Positions 25,577 to 51,774 of a stretch of 64,000 nt of DNA are shown here, piece by piece. Position numbers and translations under genes: made by a program. The stretch comes from a virus: positions 160,001-224,000 of the IMG/VR virus record IMGVR_UViG_3300045988_175328. The stretch is one strand, 5' to 3'. The notes beneath the pieces were generated by a model that did no database searches, was not told the DNA's origin, and worked only from the letters and a program-made list of their open reading frames with translations. Every line of letters begins with the position of its first letter. Within the stretch, counting starts at the first letter, position 1.

Positions 25577-25992
25577 AAATCCTCATTTATGAGGGTTTAT
25601 CCTTAGTAAGGAGGAAGATAGAAAGTAAAAATGTTTTTCTTCTTAAGGGGCAAGCCCCTTAACAACCCCGCCACCCCTGCGGGATGGACCGAACTGGCGG
25701 TGGATGAGGTCGTCCGAAACGACGTCAAACTAAAGGAAAAATCCTCACTTGTGAGGAAACTTGCTCCTGAGTACGAGCTAAAACTGCTTGCGAGGAAAAA
25801 TCCTCGTTGTTGAGAGCACTTGCTCTTCGAAGGCCCTGGCGGTGTCGGAGAGAGGAGTAGGTGCTGTGGTCCTGAATAAGACATTAAACTGTTTCAGAGG
25901 AGAAAATCCTCTGTTGTGAGAGAGCTCATTTAACTCTCTGTTTTAATTAAGCCAGTGTAGAAATATTTGCTGGTGTTTTCGGGCGCATGCCC
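25577..25992 (+). promoter_or_regulatory. gene-free cluster of repeated motifs (4 AAATCCTC hairpins, 2 CCTGA..TAAACTG boxes, 1 TTAAGGGGC palindrome, GCCAG..CTGG hairpin, GC clamp)
   Basis: AAATCCTC at 25577, 25739, 25798 and 25904. Boxes at 25766-25786 and 25871-25891. Hairpin at 25951-25973. GGGCGCATGCCC at 25981-25992, abutting the SD. Confidence 0.6.
25643..25669 (+). repeat. TTAAGGGGCAAGCCCCTTAACAACCCC element, copy 1
   Basis: Exact 27-mer, also found at 34215, 35218 and 38170, with a variant at 41909. Confidence 0.85.
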
Positions 25993-26004
25993 AAGGAGGT
26001 TATC

Positions 26005-26469
26005 ATGTTAACTTTAGAATTAAATCGAAAAATGGCCTATGGTTTTTTCCCAGAATTAATTCGCGATGAAGAGAAAATTGCGAATTTGAATGACTTATTT
26101 CAAGAAGTTATTATGAAAAATAATCCTAACGGAGTTAAGCTCCAATTGGATTTTAAGCACAATGTAATTGTGCATAAAACCAATGTAGGCGAAGTAACTC
26201 TAGTAGAAGAGTACTTCCCTAATGGTACTGAAAAACTTTGGGTAAATCGTTTCCGTAACAGGAAACAACTATTACCTAAAGTTCCTGCAGAATTAATTCC
26301 TGTCGCAAAAGAATGCGACGAAAGAAATTTATACAAATTTAATTATTTAAGAGAAGGAAACATTACGTTTTATCTCGCAAATAATAGAAAGGTTCTCGTA
26401 AGAGAAACTAAAATGGAGGATGGAAGTCTTTCAATCGATTTATTCTACCTAGCTGATTTGTTGGCCTAA
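26005..26469 (+). CDS. hypothetical protein
   Basis: The ATG at 26005 lies 5 nt after AAGGAGG. The track start at 25987 lies inside the GC-clamp hairpin. Confidence 0.6.
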   Translation: MLTLELNRKMAYGFFPELIRDEEKIANLNDLFQEVIMKNNPNGVKLQLDFKHNVIVHKTNVGEVTLVEEYFPNGTEKLWVNRFRNRKQLLPKVPAELIPVAKECDERNLYKFNYLREGNITFYLANNRKVLVRETKMEDGSLSIDLFYLADLLA

Positions 26470-26481
26470 GTAGAATAATCT

Positions 26482-26624
26482 CCTAAGCATGAGAATAAAC
26501 TGCTTATTTGTAACGGCTCCTGAATATGAGCATTAAACTGTTCTAGAAGAAAATCCTCTATTATGAGTTTTGTCCGTAATGACGATAAACTAATTATTAT
26601 AATTTAATTTGGCGGCAAATCGCC
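26482..26624 (+). promoter_or_regulatory. intergenic motif cluster
   Basis: Boxes at 26482-26502, 26519-26540 and 26573-26592. AAATCCTC at 26551. GGCGGCAAATCGCC at 26611-26624, before the SD. Confidence 0.6.
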
Positions 26625-26640
26625 AGAAAGGAGGCATATT

Positions 26641-26796
26641 ATGTCTCAATTAGAATTAACAAACCACTTAGCGTGGGTAGAAGAAATGGTTGCATTCGCG
26701 GAGACTGAAGAGTCCAACTACCGTGACTTCGAAGGATATCTTGCGGAGTCATTTATCGGAGGCCTGGACCTCTGGCTAGGAGACGATGAATTTTAG
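26641..26796 (+). CDS. small acidic protein (51 aa), not in the ORF track
   Basis: ATG lies 7 nt after AAAGGAGG. Sequence MSQLELTNHLAWVEEMVAFAETEESNYRDFEGYLAESFIGGLDLWLGDDEF. It has the same leader architecture as its neighbours. Confidence 0.55.
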   Translation: MSQLELTNHLAWVEEMVAFAETEESNYRDFEGYLAESFIGGLDLWLGDDEF

Positions 26797-26817
26797 ACTC
26801 TAGTTTCCTGACCAAGA

Positions 26818-26919
26818 CCTAGGTATGTCTTTAAACTGCCTAAATCCTCCCCATTGCGGGGACTGAATTGTCTGAGATGACGTTAAACTATTTAATTTAA
26901 TTCATGGCGGCAAATCGCC
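26818..26919 (+). promoter_or_regulatory. intergenic motif cluster
   Basis: Boxes at 26818-26838 and 26872-26890. AAATCCTC at 26842 with an alternative stem TCCCC/GGGGA. GGCGGCAAATCGCC at 26906-26919. Confidence 0.6.
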
Positions 26920-26934
26920 AGAAAGGAGATAAGT

Positions 26935-27225
26935 ATGCATACTTATACTCTTGAAAACACTGAGGCACTAGTTGCCTTAGTGCGTGACCTTTGTTTTAGC
27001 AATGGTCATTGTCCCAAAGAAATCTTCTCTTGGGATGAAAAACATTACATTGTAGCCGGCAACCTAGCTAGTTACGATGGACCATGGGACGGTCCTGAAG
27101 ATGTCGCTCATATCTACGTTGATGGTGTAGGCGTGGGAGAAATAGATATCTTCGGCGCCGACCAAATTGCATTCGCCGTTGCTAACTGGAACGGCGAAGA
27201 ATTGAACAGAAAGGTGGTGGCTTAA
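26935..27225 (+). CDS. hypothetical protein
   Basis: ORF with SD AAAGGAG. Confidence 0.6.
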   Translation: MHTYTLENTEALVALVRDLCFSNGHCPKEIFSWDEKHYIVAGNLASYDGPWDGPEDVAHIYVDGVGVGEIDIFGADQIAFAVANWNGEELNRKVVA

Positions 27226-27255
27226 CTGCTTTTCTGTAATCTCGTCGACCACTCG

Positions 27256-27639
27256 GTGGATGTTTACGATTTAGTAGGAAATCTAATCGTGAGCATCCCT
27301 AAGAGTGGTCGTGTAGCTCGTGTTCGGACAAGTAGCGAAAGAGTGGGCGCTATTTGTTCTAAGGATTTTAGCTATCGAAAATACAATGAAGACGGTAGCT
27401 ATGAAGATACACCACTTAAAGGGAACCCACAATCTGGGCACCTGAATATATTCAAATCTGAGTATTCAGATGTCGAAGGGTTCCCTGAAACTATAGAACA
27501 GGGTGTGTATTATATTGTCAGTTCTATGGTGGCGTCTCGTATACAGAGTCATCAGGTTATTGCGCCTGGTCAGATTATGCGGGACGCCTCCGGCAAAGCC
27601 GTAGGATGCTGCGGTCTTAGTTATACTGCCGGAAGATAA
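27256..27639 (+). CDS. hypothetical protein
   Basis: ORF with a GTG start and a weak SD. Confidence 0.45.
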   Translation: MDVYDLVGNLIVSIPKSGRVARVRTSSERVGAICSKDFSYRKYNEDGSYEDTPLKGNPQSGHLNIFKSEYSDVEGFPETIEQGVYYIVSSMVASRIQSHQVIAPGQIMRDASGKAVGCCGLSYTAGR

Positions 27640-27682
27640 ATTAATTAATTTAAATAGGGCCCGGATGCTCGAGGAGGTAATG

Positions 27683-27856
27683 ATGAAGAATATAATTATC
27701 GTATGCATGCTATCACTAATCTGCACTATAGCAATAGTGGAATTTTCAGTAGGCTTGTTCCCAGCATTAGCTGGGTATCCAGAAGCATTGGCTACAGCAG
27801 GAGCTATTTCTGTTGCAACTATTTCCTTCATGTTGTTTGACATGATAGGAGACTGA
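27683..27856 (+). CDS. small membrane protein
   Basis: The ATG at 27683 lies 5 nt after GAGGAGG. Two hydrophobic helices. Paralog-like to 27952-28122. Confidence 0.5.
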   Translation: MKNIIIVCMLSLICTIAIVEFSVGLFPALAGYPEALATAGAISVATISFMLFDMIGD

Positions 27857-27857
27857 A

Positions 27858-27938
27858 AAATCCTCGTTTATGAGGAGAAGTCCGTAATGACTGTAAACTA
27901 TTCTAATATATTTAATTAATTAAAGGGCGCAAATGCCC
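27858..27938 (+). promoter_or_regulatory. intergenic motif cluster
   Basis: AAATCCTCGTTTATGAGG at 27858-27875. Box at 27881-27900. GGGCGCAAATGCCC at 27925-27938. Confidence 0.6.
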
Positions 27939-27951
27939 GGAGGAGGTTTCT

Positions 27952-28122
27952 ATGAGAGACGAAATCATTTTATTAATTTCCAGCATTGCAGTAGGAGTGG
28001 GAATTTCTACTCTTATTAATGAGGTTTTCCCTATATTAGTGGATTATCCATTAGTAATGTCTATCTTCGGAGGAATCATCTCAGGAGCGATATATTATTT
28101 TATTCACTTGTTATCATACTAG
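27952..28122 (+). CDS. small membrane protein (56 aa), not in the ORF track
   Basis: SD GGAGGAGG. Sequence MRDEIILLISSIAVGVGISTLINEVFPILVDYPLVMSIFGGIISGAIYYFIHLLSY. Confidence 0.5.
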   Translation: MRDEIILLISSIAVGVGISTLINEVFPILVDYPLVMSIFGGIISGAIYYFIHLLSY

Positions 28123-28129
28123 TAGAATA

Positions 28130-28278
28130 AAATCCTCAGACCTCAGCAAGTCTTTAAACTACTCTTTCCTGACAGTTCCTAAGTATGAACATAAAACTGC
28201 TTATCTTTTAAAAATCCTCGCTTGTGAGGTGCTTGCGTAGAAATAGCAAGCTATATTATTTTAATTAGGCCTTAGGCC
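28130..28278 (+). promoter_or_regulatory. intergenic motif cluster
   Basis: AAATCCTC at 28130 and 28212. Boxes at 28141-28161 and 28178-28199. GCTTGCGTAGAAATAGCAAGC at 28231-28251. GGCCTTAGGCC at 28268-28278. Confidence 0.6.
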
Positions 28279-28295
28279 AGAAATGGAGTTTTATC

Positions 28296-28766
28296 ATGAA
28301 AACACAAAAATCTACAGAACGCAAATTAGTTAATTTTTCTAGCTACTTTAAACAAAAAGACGACAAAGTCTTTGGTGCTGCTGTATTGCACTGCGGCAAG
28401 GAAGTGCAAGTTGCTGCTTACAATGGCGGCAAAGCCCTTCATTCTATTGAAGGAGCTGTGTGTGCAGCAGCATGCGCAGCTACAGTAAATATGAAGAAGG
28501 GAGACCTCTTCACCATGATTGTTGACTTGAAGACATTACGCCAATTATGGTCTGCTATTAAAACTGGCAATGTAACTGATGACTTCGCAGGCAATGAGGC
28601 GGAACGCAATGCCGTTATCAAAATGGCCGAACGCGTTCCAGCCCTTCGGGCTCGCGGCATTATTGTGAACATTCGTGCTCATAAAGATGTCTATGCAAGT
28701 GGAGGATACTTAGCAGGGCAACTCCCAATTTGGAGCCGTATGGCTACCAAAGCTATGAACATCTAA
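28296..28766 (+). CDS. hypothetical protein
   Basis: ORF with an SD. Possibly a distant paralog of 52009-52662. Confidence 0.55.
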   Translation: MKTQKSTERKLVNFSSYFKQKDDKVFGAAVLHCGKEVQVAAYNGGKALHSIEGAVCAAACAATVNMKKGDLFTMIVDLKTLRQLWSAIKTGNVTDDFAGNEAERNAVIKMAERVPALRARGIIVNIRAHKDVYASGGYLAGQLPIWSRMATKAMNI

Positions 28767-28839
28767 ATCCTCTGACCTGAGCATGTCGGTAAACTGCTCA
28801 ATTATTTAATTTAATTTAATTAAGGGCGGCAAATCGCCC
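28765..28839 (+). promoter_or_regulatory. intergenic motif cluster
   Basis: AAATCCTC at 28765, fused to the box at 28776-28796. GGGCGGCAAATCGCCC at 28824-28839. Confidence 0.6.
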
Positions 28840-28851
28840 GAGGAGGTTTAT

Positions 28852-29337
28852 ATGCAAACTTTGAAAATTAACAATCCTACAAGAAACTTAATTGAGATGA
28901 CTTTAGAGGTCACAAAATTAAACGGCACTATTGAACAAGACGGCAATGCTGTTATCATTAATTTGCCAGAAGAACAGGTGTCTGCCTTTGTAGAATGGTA
29001 CGGTGGTACTGGACTTAAGGAGACTGCCCTTGCCATCGCAAAGAAAGCAGGAGCATTAACTGCCAAAGCAGGAGACCTTACGAAAGTAGGGACTGTTGCT
29101 TTAGGAAAATTATCTTTCAAGACAGCCTTCGGTATGACTCGCAGAGCCATTGAGGCGACCGCGGGGATCACAGCTGCGGCCGTTAATGGCGCCAAAGAAG
29201 CTTATAGCGAAATGGTAAGTTCTGACGAGTTCAGAGCTGTTAAAGAATCTTTTAGTTCTGGACGCGGCAACGGCATTGAATTTGTCGAAATGACACCGGT
29301 TGTTCAAGCTGAAGTAGCAGAAGTTGTAGAAGGATAG
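28852..29337 (+). CDS. hypothetical protein, GC-rich paralog of 50581-51096
   Basis: Shared pattern A.L..K..DL.K..G.L.FKT.FG..RR..E..AG..KE.Y..M..S.EF..F...NG. Confidence 0.65.
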   Translation: MQTLKINNPTRNLIEMTLEVTKLNGTIEQDGNAVIINLPEEQVSAFVEWYGGTGLKETALAIAKKAGALTAKAGDLTKVGTVALGKLSFKTAFGMTRRAIEATAGITAAAVNGAKEAYSEMVSSDEFRAVKESFSSGRGNGIEFVEMTPVVQAEVAEVVEG

Positions 29338-29369
29338 AAATCCTCAGACCTGAGCAAGTCGTTAAACTG
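29338..29369 (+). promoter_or_regulatory. AAATCCTC hairpin fused to a TAAACTG box
   Basis: AAATCCTCAGACCTGAGCAAGTCGTTAAACTG, near-identical to the copies at 28765 and 28130. Confidence 0.6.
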
Positions 29370-29409
29370 CTTAATTTAAATTGAATTATATTTTATGGAG
29401 GGAACTGTC

Positions 29410-29523
29410 ATGAATAAAGAAGTTAAACAAATTATTGCATCTATCGGAGTATTAGGATTGTGTTACGCAGTCGGATACGCTATTGGCTATTTCGGATTTA
29501 ATCTTGTTAAGAAAATTAAATAA
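29410..29523 (+). CDS. small membrane peptide (37 aa), not in the ORF track
   Basis: SD GGAGGG. Sequence MNKEVKQIIASIGVLGLCYAVGYAIGYFGFNLVKKIK. Confidence 0.45.
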   Translation: MNKEVKQIIASIGVLGLCYAVGYAIGYFGFNLVKKIK

Positions 29524-29533
29524 AGGAGGCTAC

Positions 29534-29794
29534 ATGACTATTTCTGAACTTGAGGGCGCCATTAAAATGATGTTCATCATTTACGGCGAGCCGACCGCAA
29601 CGAATATTGGCTACGGTGTTTTCAGAGTCACCGCTAGTGATGCTGAAATCCTTATTGAGAGGATTGATACTACTGGTGGATCTAGTATTAAACTGACTGG
29701 TCCGTCTGGTTCTATTGAAAAAGACGAGCCGTCTTTAGAATTTAGATTGTTGGTTGACCGTCTAGAGCGAGTTGTAGACGGTTATAATTATTAG
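29534..29794 (+). CDS. small acidic protein
   Basis: The ATG at 29534 follows AAAGGAGG. The track start at 29483 overlaps the upstream peptide. Confidence 0.55.
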   Translation: MTISELEGAIKMMFIIYGEPTATNIGYGVFRVTASDAEILIERIDTTGGSSIKLTGPSGSIEKDEPSLEFRLLVDRLERVVDGYNY

Positions 29795-29816
29795 TTTATC
29801 TGTAAGGAGAAACATT

Positions 29817-30302
29817 ATGGAATTACAAGTAATTAAAGGTATGGTTATTGCGGCAAAATTAGCAAACAAATTTATGGGCGGCGCCTTGGAAAACAATCGT
29901 GCCGAGCTCCAAATCGGTGACGTGAATTTAGTTATTTACAGCGCTGGCGGAAACGAGGTAGTAATTGCTCCAACTTCTATGGAGATGTGGTATGACCCAA
30001 TCCATGTTGAAGGAACTTTGGAAACTGTCTTCGATACCATCGGAGAGATGCTAAAAGAAGCTGTCGAAGATGACGAAGACTCTCCATATCGTTACGAGTT
30101 TCCTAACTTAGAGCGCCTTGTCGAGTATATCGAGAAAGAAACAGGTGTCGTAGCTAACGAACATCCTAAATGCTATACTAAAGAATGGGACGGTATTATG
30201 GAATTCGACGAGTTCAAAATCGTTTTCTTTGGGCCATACCATGGTACTGTATATGTGCCGGAAGATTACAAACTTAACTTTGTGTTGAAAGAGTTACCAT
30301 AA
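29817..30302 (+). CDS. small acidic protein, paralog of 30582-31061
   Basis: Shared IKG(M/L)(V/I)(I/M)AAKLANK.. and FGPYHGTVY(V/A)PEDY(K/Q)LNFVL(K/D)ELP. Confidence 0.65.
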   Translation: MELQVIKGMVIAAKLANKFMGGALENNRAELQIGDVNLVIYSAGGNEVVIAPTSMEMWYDPIHVEGTLETVFDTIGEMLKEAVEDDEDSPYRYEFPNLERLVEYIEKETGVVANEHPKCYTKEWDGIMEFDEFKIVFFGPYHGTVYVPEDYKLNFVLKELP

Positions 30303-30313
30303 GGAGAAATATT

Positions 30314-30568
30314 ATGGAATTAATTAAAGGATTATTCATTGGCGCCGCCTTACTAGGCAAACCAGTTCTCGTTAAGAAAGAACGGAAGGGCGTATACAAT
30401 TTTATTATCGGGCCGATCACAGTTTTTATCTATGATTGGGATGACAGTCGCACTATCGTCGGTATTGATGGACCAGAAGGTTCATACGAATCTTACAAAA
30501 TCGACGGGGATGTGAGAACAGTATTACACTACCTTGTAGATGTCAACAATAATATCGAGATTAAATAG
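30314..30568 (+). CDS. small protein related to the N-terminal half of 29817-30302
   Basis: MELIKGLFIGAALLGK.. aligns with MELQVIKGMVIAAKLANK.. Confidence 0.55.
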   Translation: MELIKGLFIGAALLGKPVLVKKERKGVYNFIIGPITVFIYDWDDSRTIVGIDGPEGSYESYKIDGDVRTVLHYLVDVNNNIEIK

Positions 30569-30581
30569 GAGTATTATTGCT

Positions 30582-31061: not shown

Positions 31062-31070
31062 GGAGAATTT

Positions 31071-31295: not shown

Positions 31296-31296
31296 A

Positions 31297-31314
31297 AAAT
31301 CCTCGTTGGCGAGG
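31297..31314 (+). promoter_or_regulatory. AAATCCTC hairpin copy
   Basis: AAATCCTCGTTGGCGAGG, with a perfect CCTCG/CGAGG stem (compensatory change relative to CCTCA/TGAGG). Confidence 0.6.
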
Positions 31315-31347: not shown

Positions 31348-31611
31348 ATGAACATGTCTTATTACGGAAGCTTATTTGATTTGGTAGAAGATATTAAAAA
31401 AGACTGCGGCGGATGGGAAACGTACAGTTATAAAGCCAAAGGCAATCAGTTAGACATTGAATTCTTTTTGGGCGACGATATCGTATGTAAGGCTGTCTTC
31501 GTGTTCGAGAAAAACTTAATCGAAGGATCTTATGTTGTCGACGAAGATATTTATGACTTCTCGGTTAAAACGGATGAAGTATTACACCATTTGTTTGCAC
31601 GTTTAGGTTAG
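31348..31611 (+). CDS. small acidic protein
   Basis: ORF with SD AAGGAGG. Confidence 0.55.
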   Translation: MNMSYYGSLFDLVEDIKKDCGGWETYSYKAKGNQLDIEFFLGDDIVCKAVFVFEKNLIEGSYVVDEDIYDFSVKTDEVLHHLFARLG

Positions 31612-32135: not shown

Positions 32136-32140
32136 TAATA

Positions 32141-32700
32141 AGGGGTGCCCGAGCGAAGCGAGGGGTTAACGCCCCTTTTATTTTTTTCTAATAACCGTCT
32201 CCAACGGATCTAGCGAGCGAAGCGAGCGATTAACGAACCTACTATGTTTAAAGGGCGAGCGAATGCGAGCCCTTGTTAATGGACTTGTTTATATGAGGCG
32301 AGCGAAGCGAGCCGTTAATGTACCTATCTTAAGTTTAGTAAGGGCGAGCGAAGCGAGCCCATTAAAGAACTAACTTAAAGATAGTAGCGATGCGAACGAA
32401 GTGAGCCGAGCTGTTGGTCCTTACTATAGTATAGTCGGCGAGTGAAACGAGCCGTTATAGTATAGTACTTATATATAGTATTAATAGAAAGAACCCGAAG
32501 GGTTATTATGTATAATAGTATATATAAGCGAAAAAGGGAGCGTGAGCGACAGAAGGAGAGGCGGCGAACGAAGTGAGCCGTTGTTTGTTTCTTTGTTCCT
32601 GTATATATAAGAAAAGACAAGACAATTTGTTTTCGTCTTTTTGTTATATATAGTATAAAGAAAAAGAATAAATGGGCGCGAGCGGCAGCGAGCGATTGTT
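32141..32700 (+). repeat. array of at least 9 GCGAGCGAAGCGAGC-type hairpin repeats
   Basis: Perfect GCGAAGC cores at 32153, 32217, 32302 and 32348. Degenerate copies near 32253, 32386, 32437, 32560 and 32674. Spacing is irregular at about 45-115 nt. The first copy is embedded in the terminator of the upstream gene (GGGG..CCCC plus a T-run, 32162-32187). Confidence 0.8.
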
Positions 32701-32827
32701 TGTTCTTGTATACTATATAATAGTATAAGAAAGACAAGAATTTTTTTGTTTGTCTTATAGTACTATATAGTATTAATAGTAAAAGAAATAAAAAAAAGAA
32801 TGCCGGAAGTGGTCTTGAAGAGATTTA

Positions 32828-33481
32828 TGGTAATATAAGTCATGGTACATGACTTAACCCGTGGGAATTGTGGACGACCCTTCCTTCCGGTGCATGTACC
32901 TTTTTTATTTTTTGTCGCTGGCTCTTATTTAATTTTTGTTCTTGTTATATACTATATATATAATAATAAAAGAAATTAAAATAAGAATCGGCGCCGAGAA
33001 AATTTTGAGTAATATAAGTCTCGAAGAGACTTAACCGTGAGGTAGAATGGCCGGATGAATTGCTATTGTCTTATACTATATATATAGTAAGACACATAAC
33101 ATATCGCCGCCCGAACCCTTTAAAAAATTTTATTATTAAATTAATTTATATTTTTTAATTTTTTCGCCCCTGGTATTTTATTATAGTACTATATAGTAAT
33201 AATATATAAACATAACAACATAATAATAATCGCCCGGGCTTCCTGAAAAAATTTTTGGTAATATAAGTCTCGAAGAGACTTAACTCCTTACCCCCGGTAT
33301 CTTGATCCCGTAGGGGTCTTATTGTACTGTATCTACACTATAGTACTTACCGAACAAAATGTTTCTTATCTTACTTTTTATTCGGTTGTACATAGGGTTA
33401 GACACTTCGGTACATTAAAAAATTTTTTTTCTAAAAAAATGACTAACGTAACTTTTATGAGTAATATAACTAACGTTAGTT
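32828..33481 (+). repeat. four tandem ~200-nt units, each with a TG(G/AG)TAATAT extended -10-like box directly followed by a perfect hairpin
   Basis: Units at 32828-32855 (AAGTCATG-GTA-CATGACTT), 33006-33032 and 33256-33281 (AAGTCTC-GAA-GAGACTT), and 33458-33481 (AACTAAC/GTTAGTT). Each is preceded by an A/T run, a GC palindrome (CGGCGCCG, GCCCGGGC) and TATAGTACTATA-type palindromes. Confidence 0.7.
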
Positions 33482-33540
33482 TTCTTCGAAGAGAAGTAAG
33501 CTGAAACTGCAAGGCTGCCTGCTCTACGACTGCCCGTACG

Positions 33541-34200
33541 GTTTTTTATAGAAGAATGGTAGTGTATTAATACTGTACTGTTAGTACTACTAGTACTGTA
33601 CTACTCGACCCACACCTTTTGTGGCTGTGCCCTAAAAGGACGGGCCACTCTAATAGTTTTTTTACAGAAATTGTAGTTAATTTGTACTATTTCTAATGCA
33701 ATATTAATAGTAAAACTGCATTGGTTTTTCTGTACTTATAGATATACTAATTGCATTAGTTTTACAGATACAATTGTATTGGTTTTACAGTACCAACAGT
33801 TAACTAACACTACAGTACTTACAGTACTAATAAGACCGTACCAATGGTTTTAATGGTACTATAGTAAGATTGTACCATTGCCAATACAGCACTGCAAATA
33901 AAACCGTACTGTTTTGCAGTACTAAATGGTAATTAAATTGGTATGTTAATACAGTACTAACAAAACTGAACCAATGCTATTAATAGTACTACAGTTAAAC
34001 TGTATCAACAAGACAGTACCTATAGTACTATCAGAACTATAGTTAGATTGTATCAATAAGACAGAACCAATAGAACTATTGAAGCTATAGAAAGACTGTA
34101 CTAATTAAACTGTACTAATAGTATTAACAGTACATATAGTAAAGTAGTATTATATTAATAATTGTAATAGTAGTATTAATAATAAGAAGAATAAAGAAAA
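33541..34200. repeat. GTAC-rich iteron-like array
   Basis: I count 21 GTAC (8 of them AGTACT) between 33575 and 34133. A degenerate ~13-nt unit A(A/G)A(C/T)TGTA(C/T)(C/T)AAT recurs every 20-35 nt. There is no ORF. Confidence 0.7.
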
Positions 34201-34214
34201 GAAAAATTTTTTTC

Positions 34215-34241
34215 TTAAGGGGCAAGCCCCTTAACAACCCC
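34215..34241 (+). repeat. TTAAGGGGCAAGCCCCTTAACAACCCC element, copy 2
   Basis: Exact 27-mer preceded by GAAAAATTTTTTTC. Confidence 0.85.
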
Positions 34242-34462
34242 AAGTTGGTGAAGTTTAAAACAGCAGTAATATAAAGACTGTGTTTTTTGTATCACCTCCA
34301 ATACCGAAACACACATCATAATGTTTCCTCCTTTCTAAAATGATGAGAACTGAGAGCTCGGTTGAAACTTAGACCGAGCCTTGGTCTTATCGCGTTTACG
34401 CGTAATATACGAGTCCTGTAAGGACTCGATAACTGGAAACGATGTTAATTTATAGGAATATA

Positions 34463-34487
34463 GCCGCCCGTTTGGGCGGCTTTTTTT
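34463..34487 (+). terminator. intrinsic terminator
   Basis: GCCGCCC-GTTT-GGGCGGC followed by TTTTTTT. It closes a ~250-nt hairpin-rich ORF-free stretch (34242-34487). Confidence 0.8.
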
Positions 34488-34508
34488 GTTTTATTTGAGG
34501 TGTTATTT

Positions 34509-35281: not shown

Positions 35282-35299
35282 AAATCCTCATTAGTGAGG
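35282..35299 (+). promoter_or_regulatory. AAATCCTC hairpin copy
   Basis: AAATCCTCATTAGTGAGG. Confidence 0.6.
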
Positions 35300-36038: not shown

Positions 36039-36094
36039 AAATCCTCATTTGTGAGTTATTTTTATGTTCTGCCAGTGTAGAAATATTTGCTGGC
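36039..36094 (+). promoter_or_regulatory. AAATCCTC hairpin plus GCCAG-TGTAGAAATATTTG-CTGGC leader hairpin
   Basis: The same pair is found at 25904/25951. A related hairpin lies at 38538-38563. Confidence 0.55.
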
Positions 36095-39766: not shown

Positions 39767-39805
39767 AAATCCTCATTTGTGAGGCGTATTTAAAGAGCAT
39801 ATATT
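39767..39805 (+). promoter_or_regulatory. AAATCCTC hairpin doubling as a sigma-A-like promoter
   Basis: -35 TTGTGA at 39777-39782, a 17-nt spacer, and -10 TATATT at 39800-39805. The gene start is at 39833. Confidence 0.55.
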
Positions 39806-42382: not shown

Positions 42383-42411
42383 TTGACAGAGAATATAGTA
42401 TTTGTTACAAT
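42383..42411 (+). promoter_or_regulatory. sigma-A-type promoter
   Basis: TTGACA at 42383-42388, a 17-nt spacer, and TACAAT at 42406-42411. Confidence 0.7.
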
Positions 42412-44897: not shown

Positions 44898-45338
44898 ATG
44901 GAAACATATTATTCTACACGCGATTTTTGTGAAGAAGTATTGCGAAGCTTACCATTAGAAGAATCCACTAAAATTAATTTTGGAAAAGGCAAGGGAAATT
45001 TTGGTGGATTTGAATTTAGAAATAAAGACAATCGAATTGGATATTTAACGATTGAAAATTTAGAAAATCGTACTTATTTCTATTGTCTTTTTTTCTTTAT
45101 GTTTGAAGATCAATATGTGTATAGAAAAATAAAAGTCGATAAAAAGCCAAATGAAATTCTTAAAACTAAAAATCCTCCAATGCATGAAGATCCATTAGAT
45201 AGAATTTTGTATGTAATGGAGAAAACTCTTTTAGATTTTAAAAGAAAGAAAACAATCATGTATACTTTAGAAGAATTAAATGGTTTATTATTCGACGCGA
45301 GTAATTATCCAAATGGGGGGGGATTTTATGAAAATTAA
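44898..45338 (+). CDS. hypothetical protein (small paralog group with 45328-45675)
   Basis: INFGKGKGNFGGFEF aligns with INVSKGKNKFKFNFE. Confidence 0.5.
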   Translation: METYYSTRDFCEEVLRSLPLEESTKINFGKGKGNFGGFEFRNKDNRIGYLTIENLENRTYFYCLFFFMFEDQYVYRKIKVDKKPNEILKTKNPPMHEDPLDRILYVMEKTLLDFKRKKTIMYTLEELNGLLFDASNYPNGGGFYEN

Positions 45339-46325: not shown

Positions 46326-46326
46326 C

Positions 46327-46353
46327 AGCCGCCCTTCGGGGCGGCTTATTTTT
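46327..46353 (+). terminator. intrinsic terminator
   Basis: AGCCGCCC-TTCG-GGGCGGCT followed by TATTTTT. Confidence 0.8.
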
Positions 46354-46387
46354 ATTTTCAACCGTCTCCAACGGAACAAGATGAATT

Positions 46388-46834
46388 ATGCAGAACGAAA
46401 AAAGAGCGTATCTGATCTTAGAGATGTTCTATCAAACAGGGAATGAAATTGTTTTCAGTGCCTTCAATAGAACCAATCAAGTGTCTTCCAGATATACAAA
46501 TTGCTATTATCGAAATGGTTTTTGTCAAAGACAAATTTTATTTGACGGAGGCAAGGTTTATCGATACGAAGTAGTCGAAGATTTAGATACAAAAATTAAT
46601 CATGTGGCTCATCAATCTTGTATTAGATATAAAGACTATGACCACATTAAACCTATTATGGAAAAAGAATTGATCGCTCGATATGGTATAACTAAATATG
46701 AGCGATATCTTAATTTAATTGACAGAGCCTGCAATGAAACATACGGCTCATTTACAACAGAATTTTATTCCTTTTCAATTCCTCCAATTGGAGAATATGA
46801 CGATACATTAGAAGACATAGAGGTGATATTTTGA
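46388..46834 (+). CDS. hypothetical protein (possibly a distant YYWE-family member)
   Basis: ..RQILFDGGKVYRYEVVED.. Confidence 0.5.
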   Translation: MQNEKRAYLILEMFYQTGNEIVFSAFNRTNQVSSRYTNCYYRNGFCQRQILFDGGKVYRYEVVEDLDTKINHVAHQSCIRYKDYDHIKPIMEKELIARYGITKYERYLNLIDRACNETYGSFTTEFYSFSIPPIGEYDDTLEDIEVIF

Positions 46835-46926
46835 GTCCGGCATTTGTTGTTTTTGGATATATTTTAGTATTATTATTAATTGCGGCCATTTTATGGGCGC
46901 TAGAAATACTATTATTTAACAAGTAA
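46831..46926 (+). CDS. small membrane peptide (31 aa, TTG start), not in the ORF track
   Basis: The TTG overlaps the upstream TGA, with SD AGAGGTGA 4 nt upstream. Sequence MSPAFVVFGYILVLLLIAAILWALEILLFNK. Confidence 0.35.
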   Translation: MSPAFVVFGYILVLLLIAAILWALEILLFNK

Positions 46927-46952
46927 TTTATTCTTTAAAAAGGAGAACTCTC

Positions 46953-47408
46953 ATGAACTTAGTAACTAAAGAAATAATCTTAACTCGACTCGATAAAAAA
47001 GGTGCACTAAGTGCACTTGAATCAACTATTGAAAAATTTCATGAAGAATATCATAATAATAAATATAATTTTAAAGATGTCGATAATCATATTGAAGAAT
47101 TTAAATTATATAATGGAGAGTTATTCTATCGCTCTACTAACGATATTAATATTGACTTAAATACATTAAAAAATAGTAACGATGAGTATGTAATTAATGA
47201 TTTAATGCGATTAAAATCTTCAGTAAATCTAGCTCTTCTATTAAAAGAAAAGAATTTTAATATGATTCCAGTACCAGAAGATCTTTTAGATAATCTATAT
47301 CTTAATATAAAACTATTCTTAAAAACAATTGAACGAATCGAGTTAGCATTAGAAGCTCTCAATCGAGCCGATACTATTCTTAATGGAGAGGATGGCTTCC
47401 GAGTCTAA
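46953..47408 (+). CDS. hypothetical protein
   Basis: ORF with SD AAAGGAG. Confidence 0.55.
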   Translation: MNLVTKEIILTRLDKKGALSALESTIEKFHEEYHNNKYNFKDVDNHIEEFKLYNGELFYRSTNDINIDLNTLKNSNDEYVINDLMRLKSSVNLALLLKEKNFNMIPVPEDLLDNLYLNIKLFLKTIERIELALEALNRADTILNGEDGFRV

Positions 47409-47630
47409 TGAAATACCGTCAAATTGTTAAAACGGTAGCACATGCTTGTATTAACTATAAATTAAGTCTTCCTATAGACTTTAAATTAATTTTAACAAGA
47501 ACTTCGTGCATGTTGTATGCTAAAGGAGAGAATGATGCTACATTTAAAGGTCGACTAATTTTATTGAAATTCAGAACTAACACTCGTGATTTTAATCATG
47601 AGATACAGTTTTGGAAATTAGTAAGCCTGT
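47408..47630 (+). CDS. hypothetical protein, exon 1 (interrupted by the IStron)
   Basis: The ORF runs into the intron, and the apparent TAG stop at 47630-47632 spans the predicted 5' splice site. Confidence 0.5.
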
Positions 47631-48127
47631 AGGGAAACTTGCAGGTAGAAATAGCTTTTAGCTATTCAACGAAGAAACTGAATTGCTGGGAACCCCTAAA
47701 GCTCAATTAACTACAATATAGATTTGAAATATAATCAAGTATGAATGTGGCGAAAGCAGAAAAAATAATTGAGATAAGATATGGTTAAACCCTAAGTCTT
47801 AAGATAATGGGCAATCAGCAGCGAAGCTCCGAATAGGAGAACGTTCAACGACTATTCCTCGTGAGGGAAGTACACCGTAAGCGATTGACGGTGGAAGTGG
47901 TGTCGCCTAAGTCGCAATAGCGATATGGATAAGATATAGTCTGTGCTTATGCGAAAGTATAAGATGCGCGTAATGGCGCTGGTTAGGAATAGCGATCCTG
48001 ATTGAACGAGACCTCACAAAACATGGTTCTAAAATGTCCTGTAAAAGTTTTACTGAAAAGTTGTTTTTTAGTAAAAGTATGTTATAATAATCTCGTAATA
48101 TAGTAATTAGAAAGCGAGGTGATAATA

Positions 48128-49378
48128 ATGTATGTAAATATGAAGCAACAGGTAAAACATCTAACAAAAGAAAAATACAATATCCTAAGAGAATTATGTA
48201 GGACTGCTAAGAATTTAAAAAATGAAGCAATTTATAATATTCGACAACATTATTTTCAAGAAAAACAATACTTGAGATATGAGTCGAATTATCATGAACT
48301 AAAGTATTCTGAAAATTATAAGCTTTTAAATTCTAATATGGCACAACAAACTCTCAAGGAAGTTGATACAATGTTTAAATCATTCTTTGCTTTGATTAAA
48401 ATGGCAAAGCAAGGAAAGTACAGTTTTAAGCATATACGATTACCTAAGTATCTGCCTAAAAATGGATATTCAAATTTAATCATTGCACAATTTAAAATTA
48501 AAGATGGTATTTTAACTATTCCAGTTTCTAATGCTTTTAAGGAAAAGCATGATATGAAAATTCAGATCAAAATTCCCAAAGCATTAGAAGGTAAAAAGAT
48601 TAAACAGATTCAAATTATACCTAAATTTAATGCTAGGTTCTTCGAGATTCAATATATATATGAAGTTCAAGAAGAAGATTTAAAATTAGATACCAACAAT
48701 GCACTGGCTATTGATTTGGGAGTTAATAATTTGTGTACTTGCGTTACAAACGCTGGTAGATCTTTTATTATCGACGGAAGGAAGTTAAAATCTGTTAATC
48801 AATTCTTTAACAAGAATTATGCTAAACTACAATCTATTAAAGACAAACAGCGTATCAAAAGACAGACGAAACAACAATATTTAATTTCTCTTAAGAGAAA
48901 GAATAGGGTTAACGATTATATCAATAAAACATGTCGATATATCATAAACTATTGCTTATCTAATAATATCGGAACTTTAGTTATTGGTTATAATCAGTCA
49001 TTTCAATGTAAAACTAATTTAGGTAGGAGAAACAATCAAATTTTTACTCAATTGCCATTTGGTAAGATTCGAGAAAAATTAGAATATTCGTGCAAACGAT
49101 ATGGTATTAATTATATCTTACAAGAAGAATCTTACACTTCTAAAGCTAGTTTTTTTGATAATGATGAGTTACCTATTTATAATGCTGACAATCCACAGGA
49201 ATATGAGTTCAGTGGAAAGCGTGTTAAAAGAGGATTATACCAGACTAAAGATGGTTATCTTTTTAATGCAGATTGTAACGGCGCATTAAATATTCTTCGT
49301 AAAAGTAGCGTTGTAGACCTTAGTGTCTTATACAGTAGGGGCGATCTGGACACGCCTAAAAGAATAAGGATCTTTTAA
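48128..49378 (+). CDS. tnpB: TnpB-like RNA-guided endonuclease (IS200/IS605 OrfB family)
   Basis: The RuvC triad contexts are ALAIDLGVNN, LQEESYTSKASF and FNADCNGALNILRK. The KRVKRGLY variant lacks the CxxC zinc finger. The ATG at 48128 follows GAGGTGA. The gene has its own extended -10 promoter, TGTTATAAT, at about 48081-48089. Confidence 0.85.
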   Translation: MYVNMKQQVKHLTKEKYNILRELCRTAKNLKNEAIYNIRQHYFQEKQYLRYESNYHELKYSENYKLLNSNMAQQTLKEVDTMFKSFFALIKMAKQGKYSFKHIRLPKYLPKNGYSNLIIAQFKIKDGILTIPVSNAFKEKHDMKIQIKIPKALEGKKIKQIQIIPKFNARFFEIQYIYEVQEEDLKLDTNNALAIDLGVNNLCTCVTNAGRSFIIDGRKLKSVNQFFNKNYAKLQSIKDKQRIKRQTKQQYLISLKRKNRVNDYINKTCRYIINYCLSNNIGTLVIGYNQSFQCKTNLGRRNNQIFTQLPFGKIREKLEYSCKRYGINYILQEESYTSKASFFDNDELPIYNADNPQEYEFSGKRVKRGLYQTKDGYLFNADCNGALNILRKSSVVDLSVLYSRGDLDTPKRIRIF

Positions 49379-49449
49379 GATCAAACTTCTTAATAAAATA
49401 ACTTTAAGTTATTTTTAGAACCATGTGATTTTAATCATGTGAGGTTCAG
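49290..49449 (+). ncRNA. candidate omega RNA (reRNA) scaffold overlapping the tnpB 3' end and the intron 3' end
   Basis: The position is inferred by analogy with characterised TnpB systems. Hairpin TGATT-TT-AATCA lies at 49426-49437. The boundaries are not determined. Confidence 0.35.
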
Positions 49450-49592
49450 TGAATCGAGATATTGATCTTAATGAATATAGCGCTTACGACCAAATTGTGT
49501 ATAAAACAGTAGAATCATATTTAATTAAAAATCAGGAGGCATTCTCTAAGTTTAATACATTAGTCGGCACTATTGAATCTGAAGTAGAATAA
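49450..49592 (+). CDS. hypothetical protein, exon 2
   Basis: Joining T at 47630 to TG at 49450-49451 gives a Leu codon and the continuous frame ..KLVSL-L-NRDIDLNEYSAYDQIVYKTVESYLIKNQEAFSKFNTLVGTIESEVE*. Confidence 0.5.
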
Positions 49593-49635
49593 AAAAGATG
49601 ACCCTGTATTTTTAAATTACAGAGTCATCTTTTTA
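49593..49635. terminator. bidirectional intrinsic terminator
   Basis: An A-run, then GATGACCCTGTA 49597-49608 / TACAGAGTCATC 49618-49629, then a T-run. It serves the converging plus-strand gene and the minus-strand HU gene. Confidence 0.75.
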
Positions 49636-49670
49636 GTCTATAGTAACGAGCTGATATTTGTATGTCAGGA

Positions 49671-49949
49671 TTATTTATTTAAAGCTTCTTTTAAAGCTTT
49701 AGCTGGTTTGAAAGCTACAGCTTTTTTTGCAGCGACTTTCATTTTTTCGCCAGTTTGTGGATTACGGCATTCGCGAGCTTTACGTTCACGAGATTCGAAA
49801 ATGCCGAAACCATGTAAGCTAACTTTATCTCCTTTTACAAGAGATGTAGTTACTGTTGCTAATACATCTTCAACTAAAGCTGTAATAGCTTTTAAAGTTA
49901 ATTCAGGATGTTTAGCAGCAACTGCTTTAATTAATTCTTGTTTATTCAT
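49671..49949 (-). CDS. hup: HU-type DNA-binding protein
   Basis: MNKQELIKAVA...GFGIFESRERKARECRNPQTGEKMKVAAKKAVAFKPAKALKEALN is the full HU/IHF signature (GFG.F..R.R.AR.GRNP.TGE). SD AAAGGAG. Confidence 0.9.
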   Translation of the reverse strand: MNKQELIKAVAAKHPELTLKAITALVEDVLATVTTSLVKGDKVSLHGFGIFESRERKARECRNPQTGEKMKVAAKKAVAFKPAKALKEALNK

Positions 49950-50124
49950 TTGTATCTCCTTTCTTATAAGTCAATAAGTAGCATGAGAAATACCTATTAT
50001 AGATTAAAATGTTTCTTGCAAGAAGAGTAGCACATAGGCACTAAACATACTACTTATTGCTTATATATTGTATTACAACGCTATTATATATCATTTAATT
50101 AGCTTTGTAAATAGCTAAATTTAA

Positions 50125-50195
50125 AAATCCTCTTTTTTGAGGCTATCATTTGCTATTCATTTAATATGTTAGCAAAATAAATCCTCATTTATGAC
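50125..50195 (+). promoter_or_regulatory. two AAATCCTC copies upstream of 50243
   Basis: AAATCCTCTTTTTTGAGG at 50125-50142 and AAATCCTCATTTATGAC at 50179-50195. Confidence 0.5.
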
Positions 50196-50242
50196 GTATT
50201 CGTCAATGTACGGCTTAGTATTATTTATCATGGAGGTTTTAT

Positions 50243-50581
50243 ATGATTGAAAAGGAAATATTAGTCCCAAGACTTGCAGCACTCACTTTCGACAATAAAA
50301 ATGATTTCGAAATTGAAGTAACTCAATGGGATGAAGTGCTTGTCAAAATTGAAGGCAAGACGGGAAATAAAGATGAATTCGCCCAGACTATTTTTAATTT
50401 AGAAACTGGTATAGTTATTTATGAAGTAGATGGTGAAGAAATAGATTCACAACTTATTGAGCCACAGTCTTTTGAAGAATGGGACTACGAGAATTGGCAA
50501 TGTGCCCATGACGATTATTCTAAATGGGTAGATTATATTAAAGAACAAGTTAATTATTTGTATACAGAAAGGGAATTTTAA
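50243..50581 (+). CDS. hypothetical acidic protein
   Basis: ORF with SD GGAGG. Confidence 0.55.
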   Translation: MIEKEILVPRLAALTFDNKNDFEIEVTQWDEVLVKIEGKTGNKDEFAQTIFNLETGIVIYEVDGEEIDSQLIEPQSFEEWDYENWQCAHDDYSKWVDYIKEQVNYLYTEREF

Positions 50582-51096
50582 TGTTAAACGTAACAGTAAA
50601 TAAAGAAATTTTAGGACAAGAAAATTTAATGAATATTATGGCTCAAACAGGAGCCACTATCGTTTCTCAAGAAGGAGACGATATTGTATTAGGCGTTAAT
50701 CCTGAACAAAAAGAAAATTTTGTAAAATTGTATGATGACGCCACTAAATTTAGTGGCGTTTATAAAGCTTCTAAGTTTGCAGGCTCTCTTATCGGGAAGA
50801 CAGCTGACTTAGGAAAGAAAGCTTTAGTTGGTACCGGCCAACTAGCCTTTAAAACTACTTTTGGTGTAGGTCGTCGCTGTGTTGAAACAGTGGCTGGTCT
50901 TGGTGCTAAAATGGTTAAAGAAGGGAAAGAAAGCTATGGTCAAATGATGGACTCTGAAGAGTTTAATGATTTACGAAATCAATTTGGTGGCTCTTCTGAT
51001 AATGGATTATCATGGAATTCTGTAGAACAGAAAGAAACTCCTACTCAAGAAGAAATTTTAGAAGAAGCCACAAGACTCAATGAGGAGCAAGGTTAA
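50581..51096 (+). CDS. hypothetical protein, AT-rich paralog of 28852-29337
   Basis: See 28852-29337. Start and stop are overlap-coupled. Confidence 0.65.
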   Translation: MLNVTVNKEILGQENLMNIMAQTGATIVSQEGDDIVLGVNPEQKENFVKLYDDATKFSGVYKASKFAGSLIGKTADLGKKALVGTGQLAFKTTFGVGRRCVETVAGLGAKMVKEGKESYGQMMDSEEFNDLRNQFGGSSDNGLSWNSVEQKETPTQEEILEEATRLNEEQG

Positions 51097-51716
51097 TGAA
51101 ATACCTATTAACTATTCTCGAAAATGAGTCTAATGAAGGAGAAGTAGCACTCCATTGTCTTAATGACAATGGAGTCTATCTTCCATTTCTTAGAAGAGAA
51201 AAATATCAATCTCTCGATCATTTAAATATATTAGTTGGCAATTTTCTTAAAAATGTAACTTCTATAGAAAATTATGTCGGCATTTTTCTGAGCGAGAATT
51301 TAATTCGATTAGATTTCAATGAAAAAATCTATAAAAAAGAAATTGAAAAATTTCTTAAATTAAATCCTCAATATGTTAATGAGCACTATACTGTCCAAAC
51401 TGGACAACATGGTAGCGTTATTACCAATGTATTCATTGACAAAAGAAGATTTCTAAAATTAGCAAAAAGCAAAGTAGGCAAAACATGGGCTTCTAAAGAT
51501 TTTAAGGTCAAAAATATAGTTAGCTACAATTTGCTTTTGGCCAGCGAAGCTGAAAAAGAAATCATTAAAATAAACCCTCTATTGTCTAGAAATGATATCA
51601 ATCATTTAATTCTTTGCCATGCAATAGTAAAGACTGAATTTGGCGATAAGGCATTTGAAGAGCTTGTAAGAAATTCTTCTCTTAATAATCACTCTTCATC
51701 ATCATTAATGCACTAA
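51096..51716 (+). CDS. hypothetical protein
   Basis: Translationally coupled ORF. Confidence 0.55.
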   Translation: MKYLLTILENESNEGEVALHCLNDNGVYLPFLRREKYQSLDHLNILVGNFLKNVTSIENYVGIFLSENLIRLDFNEKIYKKEIEKFLKLNPQYVNEHYTVQTGQHGSVITNVFIDKRRFLKLAKSKVGKTWASKDFKVKNIVSYNLLLASEAEKEIIKINPLLSRNDINHLILCHAIVKTEFGDKAFEELVRNSSLNNHSSSSLMH

Positions 51717-51733
51717 GTATATTTAGCAAATTA

Positions 51734-51774
51734 AAATCCTCACATTTGACATTTTCATAATATTAGCATATAAT
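51734..51774 (+). promoter_or_regulatory. consensus sigma-A-type promoter preceded by AAATCCTCA
   Basis: TTGACA at 51746-51751, a 17-nt spacer, and TATAAT at 51769-51774. Confidence 0.8.

Follow-up and report, generated by a model that had tools for sequence, protein, structure and literature searches.

A conserved intergenic motif interleaved with RNA pseudoknots in an uncultured jumbo phage, a proposed new promoter consensus that may be read by a QDE-1-like polymerase

The window analysed here is a single stretch of 64,000 nucleotides (nt) from a virus (IMG/VR record IMGVR_UViG_3300045988_175328, positions 160,001 to 224,000 of that record), and our subject is motif A, a short sequence that recurs between its small genes. 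A protein search of the ENA and Logan metagenomes identified the kin of the window as a small group of uncultured phages of 222–225 kb, and the window thus comes from an uncultured jumbo phage of ~220 kb. All of its sizeable open reading frames (ORFs) are plus-strand, and their AGGAGG ribosome sites are strong. In the left third of the window lie genes for large virion-type proteins, for tail-fibre proteins bearing Gp10_C domains and for a fragment of DNA polymerase III alpha, and the region beyond 25.4 kb contains dozens of small ORFs without a family match in Pfam or PHROG. Behind the tail-fibre genes comes a large polymerase-like ORF, with a strong terminator (25414) at its end. Downstream of it, motif A is interleaved with a small RNA pseudoknot (element B), three types of hairpin (b, C1 and C2) and Shine–Dalgarno (SD) sequences. 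The polymerase-like ORF, the terminator and the copies of motif A are arranged as follows.

20595–25397, plus strand: ORF of 1,600 amino acids (aa), candidate single-chain two-barrel RNA polymerase and suggested reader of motif A
25414–25444, plus strand: strong intrinsic terminator after the polymerase-like ORF; the motif A copies start 133 nt downstream
25577–25593, plus strand: motif A copy 1, the first of four tandem copies in a 607-nt leader after the terminator at 25414
25739–25755, plus strand: copy 2, with a pseudoknot B after it at 25763
25798–25814, plus strand: copy 3, with an upstream CGAGG that gives an alternative pairing, CGAGG-aaaaat-CCTCG
25904–25920, plus strand: copy 4, the last before the gene at 26005–26469
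26551–26567, plus strand: copy 5, in an intergenic region with the order B, B, A, b, C1, SD
26842–26858, plus strand: copy 6, a TGCG variant that could alternatively form a TCCCC/GGGGA hairpin
27858–27874, plus strand: copy 7, beginning 2 nt past a stop codon
28130–28146, plus strand: copy 8, a TCAG variant that overlaps a pseudoknot B
28212–28228, plus strand: copy 9, followed by hairpin C2
28765–28781, plus strand: copy 10, overlapping the upstream stop codon and a pseudoknot B
29338–29354, plus strand: copy 11, overlapping a pseudoknot B
31297–31313, plus strand: copy 12, a CGAG variant and the sole conserved element of the 52-nt intergenic region before the gene at 31348
35282–35298, plus strand: copy 13, class 2, with upstream TTAGCAAA
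36039–36055, plus strand: copy 14, class 2
39767–39783, plus strand: copy 15, class 2; TTGTGA-17-TATATT is also present there
50125–50141, plus strand: copy 16, downstream of the divergent HU-like gene and so at the start of a plus-strand unit
50179–50195, plus strand: copy 17, a TGAC variant 64 nt ahead of the gene at 50243
51734–51750, plus strand: copy 18, a TGAC variant overlapping the −35 hexamer of a 12/12 consensus sigma-A promoter

The core of motif A is the 8-mer AAATCCTC, which occurs 21 times in the window against 2.9 ± 2.1 times by chance; none of 100 shuffles reached 21, and 20 of the 21 copies are on the plus strand. It is the most intergenic-specific 8-mer of the window, with 17 intergenic copies in 12 intergenic regions and 3 elsewhere. 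The 18 plus-strand starts given in a preliminary description of this DNA are all exact matches and all intergenic. That description had noticed no copies inside the long structural genes or on the minus strand. The structural block (1–25 kb) is indeed free of motif A, as is the region from 52 to 64 kb, but three copies of the 8-mer within ORFs had been overlooked, at 45170 and 51362 (plus strand, in small ORFs) and at 62958 (minus strand). None of these three continues with TGAG, and they look like chance occurrences, fitting the ~1.5 chance copies expected per strand.

We aligned 68 distinct copies, drawn from the window and from five of its relatives. The alignment defined the full motif as (A)AAATCCTC-N5-TGAG(G), 17–18 nt long, in which 8 invariant bases are followed by exactly 5 free positions and then by TGAG. 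The T, G, A and G are conserved in 60, 66, 63 and 64 of the 68 copies, respectively, and the next G in about half. No conservation at a fixed distance was found on either side of the motif, with an information content of ~0 past position 17. When at most one mismatch is allowed, the 17-mer AAATCCTC-N5-TGAG recovers exactly the 18 window sites, all intergenic and on the plus strand, and the three additional 8-mers drop out. Six of the 18 copies start 0–8 nt past the upstream stop codon, and the distance to the next start codon is usually 51–101 nt. In every relative, the 10 kb past the large ORF holds 10–12 plus-strand and 0–2 minus-strand copies, and the motif is invariant across five groups of related ~222–225 kb metagenomic phages. 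Motif A is real, non-random and conserved.

Five copies outside 25–31 kb (35282, 36039, 39767, 50179 and 51734) carry an extra upstream block, TT[A/G]GCAAA, 2–6 nt before AAATCCTC; at 36039 the block reads TCGGCAAA. These copies are not accompanied by B, b or C1 elements and form a second motif subclass, class 2. A full-text literature search with the 8-mer AAATCCTC returned unrelated primers only.

The preliminary description had emphasized a small hairpin within most copies and, from apparent compensatory changes in its stem, had proposed that the structure itself is under selection. The quoted hairpins exist: CCTCGTTGGCGAGG at 31301–31314, TCCCC/GGGGA at 26848–26862 and CTCA-GACC-TGAG at 29338, although the last was also assigned to 28765, where only CTC/GAG pairs. 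The proposed selection did not survive the analysis of the 68 copies, in which the 7-pair helix shows no covariation: 70.4% of its cells are paired, as compared with 70.0% in column shuffles, and its covariation score is 0.080, as compared with 0.073 when shuffled. The sole variable inner pair (positions 8 and 13) is A-T in 21 copies, G·T in 15, G-C in 5 and unpaired in 27, and T13 is retained irrespective of the opposing base. The minimum free energy (MFE) averages −5.1 kcal/mol; column shuffles average −4.5 ± 0.18 kcal/mol (z = −3.6), and the added stability is modest. The residual structural signal includes the enrichment of G17 to 51% and of some copies with longer stems in another register (CCTCCTC/GAGGAGG and CCTCTCC/GGAGAGG). 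It is the conserved sequence blocks CTC and GAG that give the potential to pair, and motif A is a sequence signal with a short inverted repeat inside. A hairpin is possible yet weak, and is not the defining feature of the element.

The inverted repeat bears on two further explanations, both of which we regard as less likely than the two discussed later, with the remaining probability falling to others. Conserved CTC and GAG blocks, inverted at a fixed spacing and extended by the enriched G17, are what would be expected of an operator at which a dimeric regulator binds the partial palindrome (T)CCTC-N6-GAGG(A) and represses or activates early units. At 39767 and 51734, such an operator would overlap the −35 of good host-type sigma-A promoters, where a class II activator or repressor site is typically found. 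We nevertheless judge an operator unlikely. The conservation is asymmetric, with the left AAAT invariant and its right mirror at background (A18 41%, T19 26%), the copies have a uniform orientation to genes that a symmetric operator does not need, and most have no recognizable host-type promoter to control. It is very unlikely that the copies instead act as weak intrinsic terminators of the minus strand (CCTCAnnnnTGAGG then ATTTTT), halting antisense transcription through the early region. A pattern scan does list at least 7 copies as such, including those at 25594, 25757, 27876, 31314, 35299 and 39784, but the stems are only 3–6 bp, the MFE is mostly −2 to −7 kcal/mol, and terminators conserve shape rather than an invariant 8-mer. 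Moreover, no minus-strand genes or promoters feed into the region, and the placement before plus-strand start codons would be left unexplained.

A role as the −35 module of a sigma-70-type promoter, suggested earlier from two copies whose 3′ arm doubles as a −35 hexamer, does not hold for motif A in general. Both quoted pairs are exact, with 17-nt spacers (TTGTGA at 39777 with TATATT at 39800, and TTGACA at 51746 with TATAAT at 51769), and the second forms a 12/12 consensus promoter at 51746–51774. Across 69 copies, however, a −10 hexamer (TAnnnT) lies 16–18 nt from the TTGTGA-like hexamer in only about 5, with no excess over other offsets. Within the window, the −35 reading fits 2–4 of the 18 copies and is convincing only at 39767 and 51734, and motif A is missing from the near-consensus host-type promoters at 42383 and 42996. 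A pattern scan detected no sigma-A-like promoter in the 25.4–32 kb region, including the leader after the terminator at 25414, and none was found ahead of the ORF at 20595–25397. A search of ~40 window proteins against Pfam and PHROG for a sigma factor, regulator or RNase yielded only tail-fibre domains, TnpB and the DNA polymerase III alpha fragment.

Other ways of reading the motif were considered and set aside. With TAAACT as the −10, the −35 spacing is 17 nt only in copies where A and B overlap, and is 27, 28 or 34 nt elsewhere. The GAGG has no suitably positioned start codon that would make it an SD-like site for a small ORF, the minus-strand AGGATTT taken as a sigma-H −35 has no conserved −10, and a nick or restriction site would leave the placement relative to genes unexplained. 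About 165 nt past the TTGACA-17-TATAAT promoter at 51746, a hairpin and T-run that resemble a terminator (51938–51960) precede the gene at 52009; the interval 51746–51960 has no Rfam match and could be a small RNA or an attenuator- or riboswitch-like leader.

Immediately upstream of the motif-rich region, the 1,600-aa ORF contains LRYPHSNGFSF and, 64 residues on, AGMDFDGDVISV; residues R852, P854, H855 and G915-M-D-F-D-x-D921 are invariant in nine family members. The catalytic double-psi barrel of multisubunit-type polymerases bears an RxPxxH...NADFDGD signature, which the RYPH...GMDFDGD of the ORF resembles, and an invariant VRTNTGKGQ further upstream may belong to the second barrel. An exhaustive HMMER search of 1.84 billion representatives identified two distant proteins that match exactly the catalytic-motif stretch, one with GMDTDFD and the other with a weak Pfam match to the RNA-dependent RNA polymerase (RdRP) family (PF05183) over the same stretch, and a profile search with the polymerase family alignment found no new members. 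An AlphaFold2 model of residues 330–1320, built from a 9-row alignment, has a predicted local distance difference test (pLDDT) score of 42. The best Foldseek match of this poor model was the Neurospora QDE-1 RNA polymerase (E 2.5e-3, probability 0.80; others E ≥ 0.4), which we take as a weak pointer only. We consider it likely that the ORF encodes a single-chain two-barrel RNA polymerase.

A comparison of the window with its relatives L006, L007 and L009 revealed two alleles of the polymerase-like ORF that are ~34% identical, flanked by tail-fibre and early genes that are 80–98% identical. Among genomes that are otherwise similar, the ORF is thus a cassette that is hypervariable or has been exchanged, and some relatives have shorter forms of 1,254–1,262 aa. 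It is preceded by a 704-nt intergenic region (19891–20594) with two ~45-nt direct repeats (TAGGTCRAGTTAG...). Four independent assemblies (L004, L006, L010 and L011) end 0.9–1.8 kb upstream of the ORF, which could reflect a genome terminus or an assembly break from strain variation. In one group of relatives, L009 (15409–17385), L010 (6593–8569) and L011 (6542–8518), a 658-aa gene that the window does not have directly follows the ORF; its product has kinase (AAA_33), polyA/CCA-adding polymerase and HD domains and resembles an RNA repair or tRNA-end enzyme. A tRNA scan of the window found none. Among 50,697 deposited phage records, neither the 25.4–32 kb region (megablast) nor the 1,600-aa ORF (tblastn) had a match, and scanning IMG/VR with the ORF and with AAAATCCTCATTTGTGAGG found nothing.

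Between 25.4 and 31.4 kb, eight intergenic regions follow a common grammar. After the stop codon come any B elements present (none, one or several), then a single motif A, and next either a b hairpin or a B that overlaps motif A; the AT-rich TTTAATTA, C1 or C2, an SD sequence and ATG complete the order. Each has exactly one motif A copy nearest the gene. The structured elements of these cassettes, with two further C2 copies downstream, are the following.

25763, 25869, 26479, 26516, 26814, 28138, 28175, 28772 and 29347, plus strand: element B, an H-type pseudoknot; the copies span 25763–29373 and are interleaved with motif A
25711, 26570, 26869 and 27879, plus strand: b hairpins, just downstream of motif A
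26609, 26905, 27925 and 28824, plus strand: C1 hairpins, with a variable stem and the loop GCAAAT, directly upstream of the SD sequence
25949, 28231, 36071 and 38540, plus strand: C2 hairpins, with a variable stem and the loop GTAGAAATA, directly upstream of the SD sequence

Element B is ~30 nt long and comprises a stem 1 (S1) of 3–5 bp whose sequence varies, a loop of a single base, C, and four loop bases (TGAG, TAAG, TGGG, TGGA, TAGG or TGAA) that pair with CTCA, CTTA, CCCA, TCCA, CCTA or TTCA right after TAAACTG, within a conserved junction [T/A]AAACT[G/A]. In a set of 60 distinct copies, 9 from the window and 51 from L001, L003, L006, L007 and L009, 84.6% of cells are paired, as compared with 66.1% when shuffled, and the covariation score is 0.525, as compared with 0.208 when shuffled and ≤0.16 when the partners are slid. 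Double changes occur at 4 of 5 pairs in S1 and 3 of 4 pairs in the second helix (S2), 7 of 9 overall, and a partner-shuffle test gave 3.62 against 3.09 ± 0.05 pairs. Element B is an H-type pseudoknot whose crossing helices are each supported by covariation. G·U pairs are present in both helices, indicating that the plus strand is the one that folds, with sense RNA as the simplest case. Its architecture recalls those of preQ1-I aptamers and luteovirus frameshift knots. A search of the whole window against Rfam at the gathering score found no match, and one of 25.3–32.2 kb at E ≤ 10 returned noise only, with nothing on motif A or element B and no preQ1-like match for B; the element is a new small pseudoknot family without an Rfam counterpart. 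An alternative view of B as a CRISPR-repeat mimic (a hairpin with AUAAACUG, like a type I-E handle) was discarded in favour of the pseudoknot, which the covariation fits better.

The b hairpins have variable stems of 3–5 bp and loops of 5–6 nt, CCGAA at 25711 and CGTAAT or TGAGAT in the other three, followed by CAAACTA (25711) or TAAACTA (the others); no pseudoknot partner is evident for any of the four window copies. C1 and C2 are probably 5′-leader RNA structures. At 28130, 28765 and 29338, and in their orthologues, motif A overlaps B such that its TGAG is the loop strand of the pseudoknot (S2a), and the CCTCA of motif A includes the same CUCA as the closing strand (S2b).

From the position of motif A, its strand bias, its invariance in the kin and the candidate polymerase gene immediately upstream, the general idea of the preliminary description, a strand-specific and gene-proximal regulatory signal tied to phage expression, is upheld, whereas its arguments from the −35 hexamer, structural selection and phage N4 are not. 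We tentatively favour the explanation that motif A acts as a complete promoter in its own right, from which early or middle genes are transcribed under the direction of the phage; the promoter role, the position of transcription start and the reading enzyme are all inferred from sequence. The motif would be read as DNA sequence, and its likeliest reader would be the single-chain two-barrel polymerase of the phage (ORF 20595–25397). The invariant 8-mer would serve as a −10-like recognition block and TGAG, 5 nt on, as the initiation region, with transcripts starting from about G14–G16. The resulting 5′ leaders would be 37–90 nt long and would carry b, C1 or C2 hairpins and an SD sequence. Each small gene or short operon in the 25.5–52 kb block would have its own copy, and the pseudoknots upstream of motif A would form the 3′ ends of the preceding transcripts.

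Several features support a promoter. Motif A is a conserved sequence within the 15–25 nt range of phage RNA polymerase promoters, lies on the coding strand in intergenic regions before one gene class and is absent elsewhere. Unlike B, it shows no covariation, which points to conservation of sequence, as expected of a DNA site read by a protein. A rigid block without flanking conservation is the anatomy of a phage-specific polymerase promoter and not of a sigma-70 −35/−10 pair. Furthermore, each intergenic region has motif A as its sole conserved non-structural signal, and copies stand where transcripts are required to start: four in tandem 133–490 nt past the terminator at 25414, two (50125 and 50179) after the divergent HU-like gene, and one (31297) alone in a 52-nt gap.

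This arrangement has parallels in known phage systems. The non-virion RNA polymerase promoters of AR9 and phiKZ and the P23-45 system (gp96/gp64) likewise have a short coding-strand phage motif before a temporal gene class and a promoter unrelated to the sigma-70 −35/−10 pair, and these phages have their own two-barrel-type polymerase, as does the window in the form of its candidate. [quoted passage not shown] The motif sequences are unrelated to motif A, which contains an inverted repeat, is interleaved with RNA pseudoknots and has predicted rather than mapped starts, and the candidate enzyme here is a single 1,600-aa chain that is closest, weakly, to QDE-1/RdRP-like enzymes. The proposed geometry of an 8-mer plus TGAG resembles the bipartite promoters of phage two-barrel enzymes. 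A closer counterpart of the enzyme is gp66 of the crAss-like phage phi14:2, a virion RNA polymerase with a QDE-1-like two-barrel fold (bioRxiv 10.1101/2020.03.07.982082). Like the window ORF, gp66 is a large single chain with a DFDxD-type catalytic motif, and its gene closes the structural block, beside the early genes; the two differ in the sharp motif found here, and the PDB sequence search detected no homology. For another such enzyme, YonO, the promoter was left undetermined (PMC5467207).

T7 has ~17 near-identical promoters of 17–23 nt in one orientation, often right after a stop codon and beside conserved RNA structures, and motif A is similar in copy number, orientation, post-stop placement and its RNA-structure neighbours. 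The polymerase family, the motif sequence and the RNA structures are different. The hairpin promoters of N4, which depend on negative supercoiling and single-stranded DNA-binding protein (SSB), had been cited as an analogy for motif A. Both are early-gene signals with an inverted repeat, but the analogy fails on stem and loop geometry, hairpin strand and polymerase family. The N4 virion RNA polymerase is a T7-like enzyme that recognizes mainly hairpin shape, on the template strand, with a critical −11G in the loop (PMC13492108). The N4 P2 promoter has a 5-bp stem and a 3-nt loop with −11G, whereas motif A has a stem core of 3–5 bp and loops of 4–8 nt. Recognition in N4 is governed by shape, whereas motif A has an invariant 8-mer and a helix without covariation, and in 15 of its 68 copies a plus-strand G·T would become A·C on the template strand that carries the N4 hairpin. 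Finally, the T7-like single-subunit enzyme of N4 belongs to a different superfamily from the candidate here, with its DFDGD two-barrel motif and QDE-1 fold match.

The cassettes themselves recall the PeSL elements of T4-type phages, small cassettes between small variable early genes at which indels among kin are bounded (PMC2839356 and PMC4122927). Repeated cassettes are also found here, and in the one indel examined L003 has an extra YpsA-like gene together with one A/B cassette between the 156-aa and 161-aa orthologues. PeSLs combine a terminator stem-loop with a sigma-70 early promoter, whereas the cassettes here have a pseudoknot without a U-tract, no sigma-70 promoter and the conserved AAATCCTC-N5-TGAG.

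Several observations weigh against a promoter read by this polymerase. The 1,600-aa ORF has no sequence match in Pfam, PHROG or PDB (the last searched with the single sequence and a profile), the AlphaFold2 model behind the QDE-1 match is poor, and the assignment as a polymerase rests on the motif and weak matches. Motif A is unchanged between the ~34%-identical polymerase alleles, although polymerases so divergent usually recognize different promoters, and in T7-like phages the promoter shifts with polymerase divergence. An unchanged motif is compatible with both alleles only if specificity has been kept or if the reader is some other factor. The QDE-1-like gp66, the sole member of this polymerase class studied so far among the relatives, sets a further precedent, as no common promoter motif was found upstream of the early transcripts and it prefers single-stranded DNA (bioRxiv 10.1101/2020.03.07.982082). 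A start within TGAG would cut the overlapping pseudoknot B in three window copies and their orthologues, and B would thus form there only in read-through RNA. In the orthologous copies at L006 9152 and L007 17782, TGAG is lost and a 5–6 bp stem with an 8-nt loop is retained, and in several copies GAGG occurs on both sides of CCTC; these two features hint at a structural role in RNA or a single strand.

They also bear on the main alternative, a somewhat doubtful one, in which motif A is a cis-acting RNA element of long polycistronic early transcripts. The reader of AAAUCCUC would be an RNA-binding protein or an endoribonuclease, of phage or host origin, which might for instance cut within single-stranded AAAU, and the CCUC...GAGG hairpin or the overlapping pseudoknot would provide a protected 5′ end for the next cistron. 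In a variant of this explanation, the element would be a switch in which CCUCA and the CUCA strand of the pseudoknot compete for UGAG. The neighbours of motif A are structured on the plus strand (covariation in B, and variable stems with fixed loops in C1 and C2), and its TGAG and CCTCA share the S2a strand and the S2b sequence of B, as described above. Beyond the two-sided GAGG and the hairpin kept with another loop length where TGAG is lost, an RNA element would be consistent with the six copies that adjoin a stop codon, with the MFE slightly below that of column shuffles (z = −3.6) and with the base opposite T13, which gives G·T in 15 copies and A·C in none. The motif A helix shows no covariation, however, and neither the exact N5 spacing nor a T13 kept irrespective of its partner is needed by a simple hairpin; eight invariant bases would also be unusual in a structural RNA arm. 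Moreover, an RNA element would leave no identified promoter after the terminator at 25414 or after the divergent gene at 49.9 kb, and four tandem copies without an intervening gene are hard to square with processing sites.

A more far-reaching version of the promoter explanation is doubtful. It holds that AAATCCTC-N5-TGAG would be the first sharply defined promoter of a single-chain QDE-1/gp66-like two-barrel polymerase, found in a family of gut-type jumbo phages within pseudoknot cassettes, each of which would end one message and start the next. Transcripts initiated at the motif would then be without the 5′ half of the overlapping pseudoknot, and read-through transcripts would form the whole pseudoknot. 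Promoters of single-chain two-barrel phage polymerases are essentially unknown, and this system unites a gene for a candidate polymerase, a 17-nt motif that is rigid and present in ~18 copies per genome, and five natural variants of the system. Promoter recognition by this class of enzyme would thus become directly testable with a synthetic gene and reporters, even though the phage is uncultured. If motif A is instead a signal for RNA processing or stability, it would represent a sequence-specific RNA-recognition system in the early expression of jumbo phages. Whatever motif A does, the cassettes yield a new pseudoknot family and a PeSL-like modular layout in a phage that apparently infects a host with strong SD sites.

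Further features lie outside the cassettes. The interval 47633–49378 holds a TnpB gene (IS605 OrfB / Cas12f-like TNB) with a structured 495-nt region upstream. Beside it, the HU-like gene (49671–49949, minus strand) is the sole clear minus-strand gene of the window and has its own consensus promoter at 50111–50083. The interval 32136–34508 is a non-coding 2.4 kb rich in repeats, of the GCGAGCGAAGCGAGCC type and an AT-rich 'tatatagta'. In it, GTAATATAAG occurs 5–6 times, each time followed by a hairpin; these units resemble promoters that have a 5′ hairpin, and could represent genes for small RNAs. The ACAGTACT/AAACTGTA repeats form a block at 33.6–34.15 kb. Element D, in which a T-run precedes TTAAGGGGCAAGCCCCTTAA and CAACCCC, in that order, is present at 25640, 34212, 35216, 38180 and 41915 (the last a variant), at gene ends or ahead of motif A. 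Finally, a small hairpin, AACCGTCTCCAACGGA, occurs at 32190 and 46365, each time after a strong intrinsic terminator.

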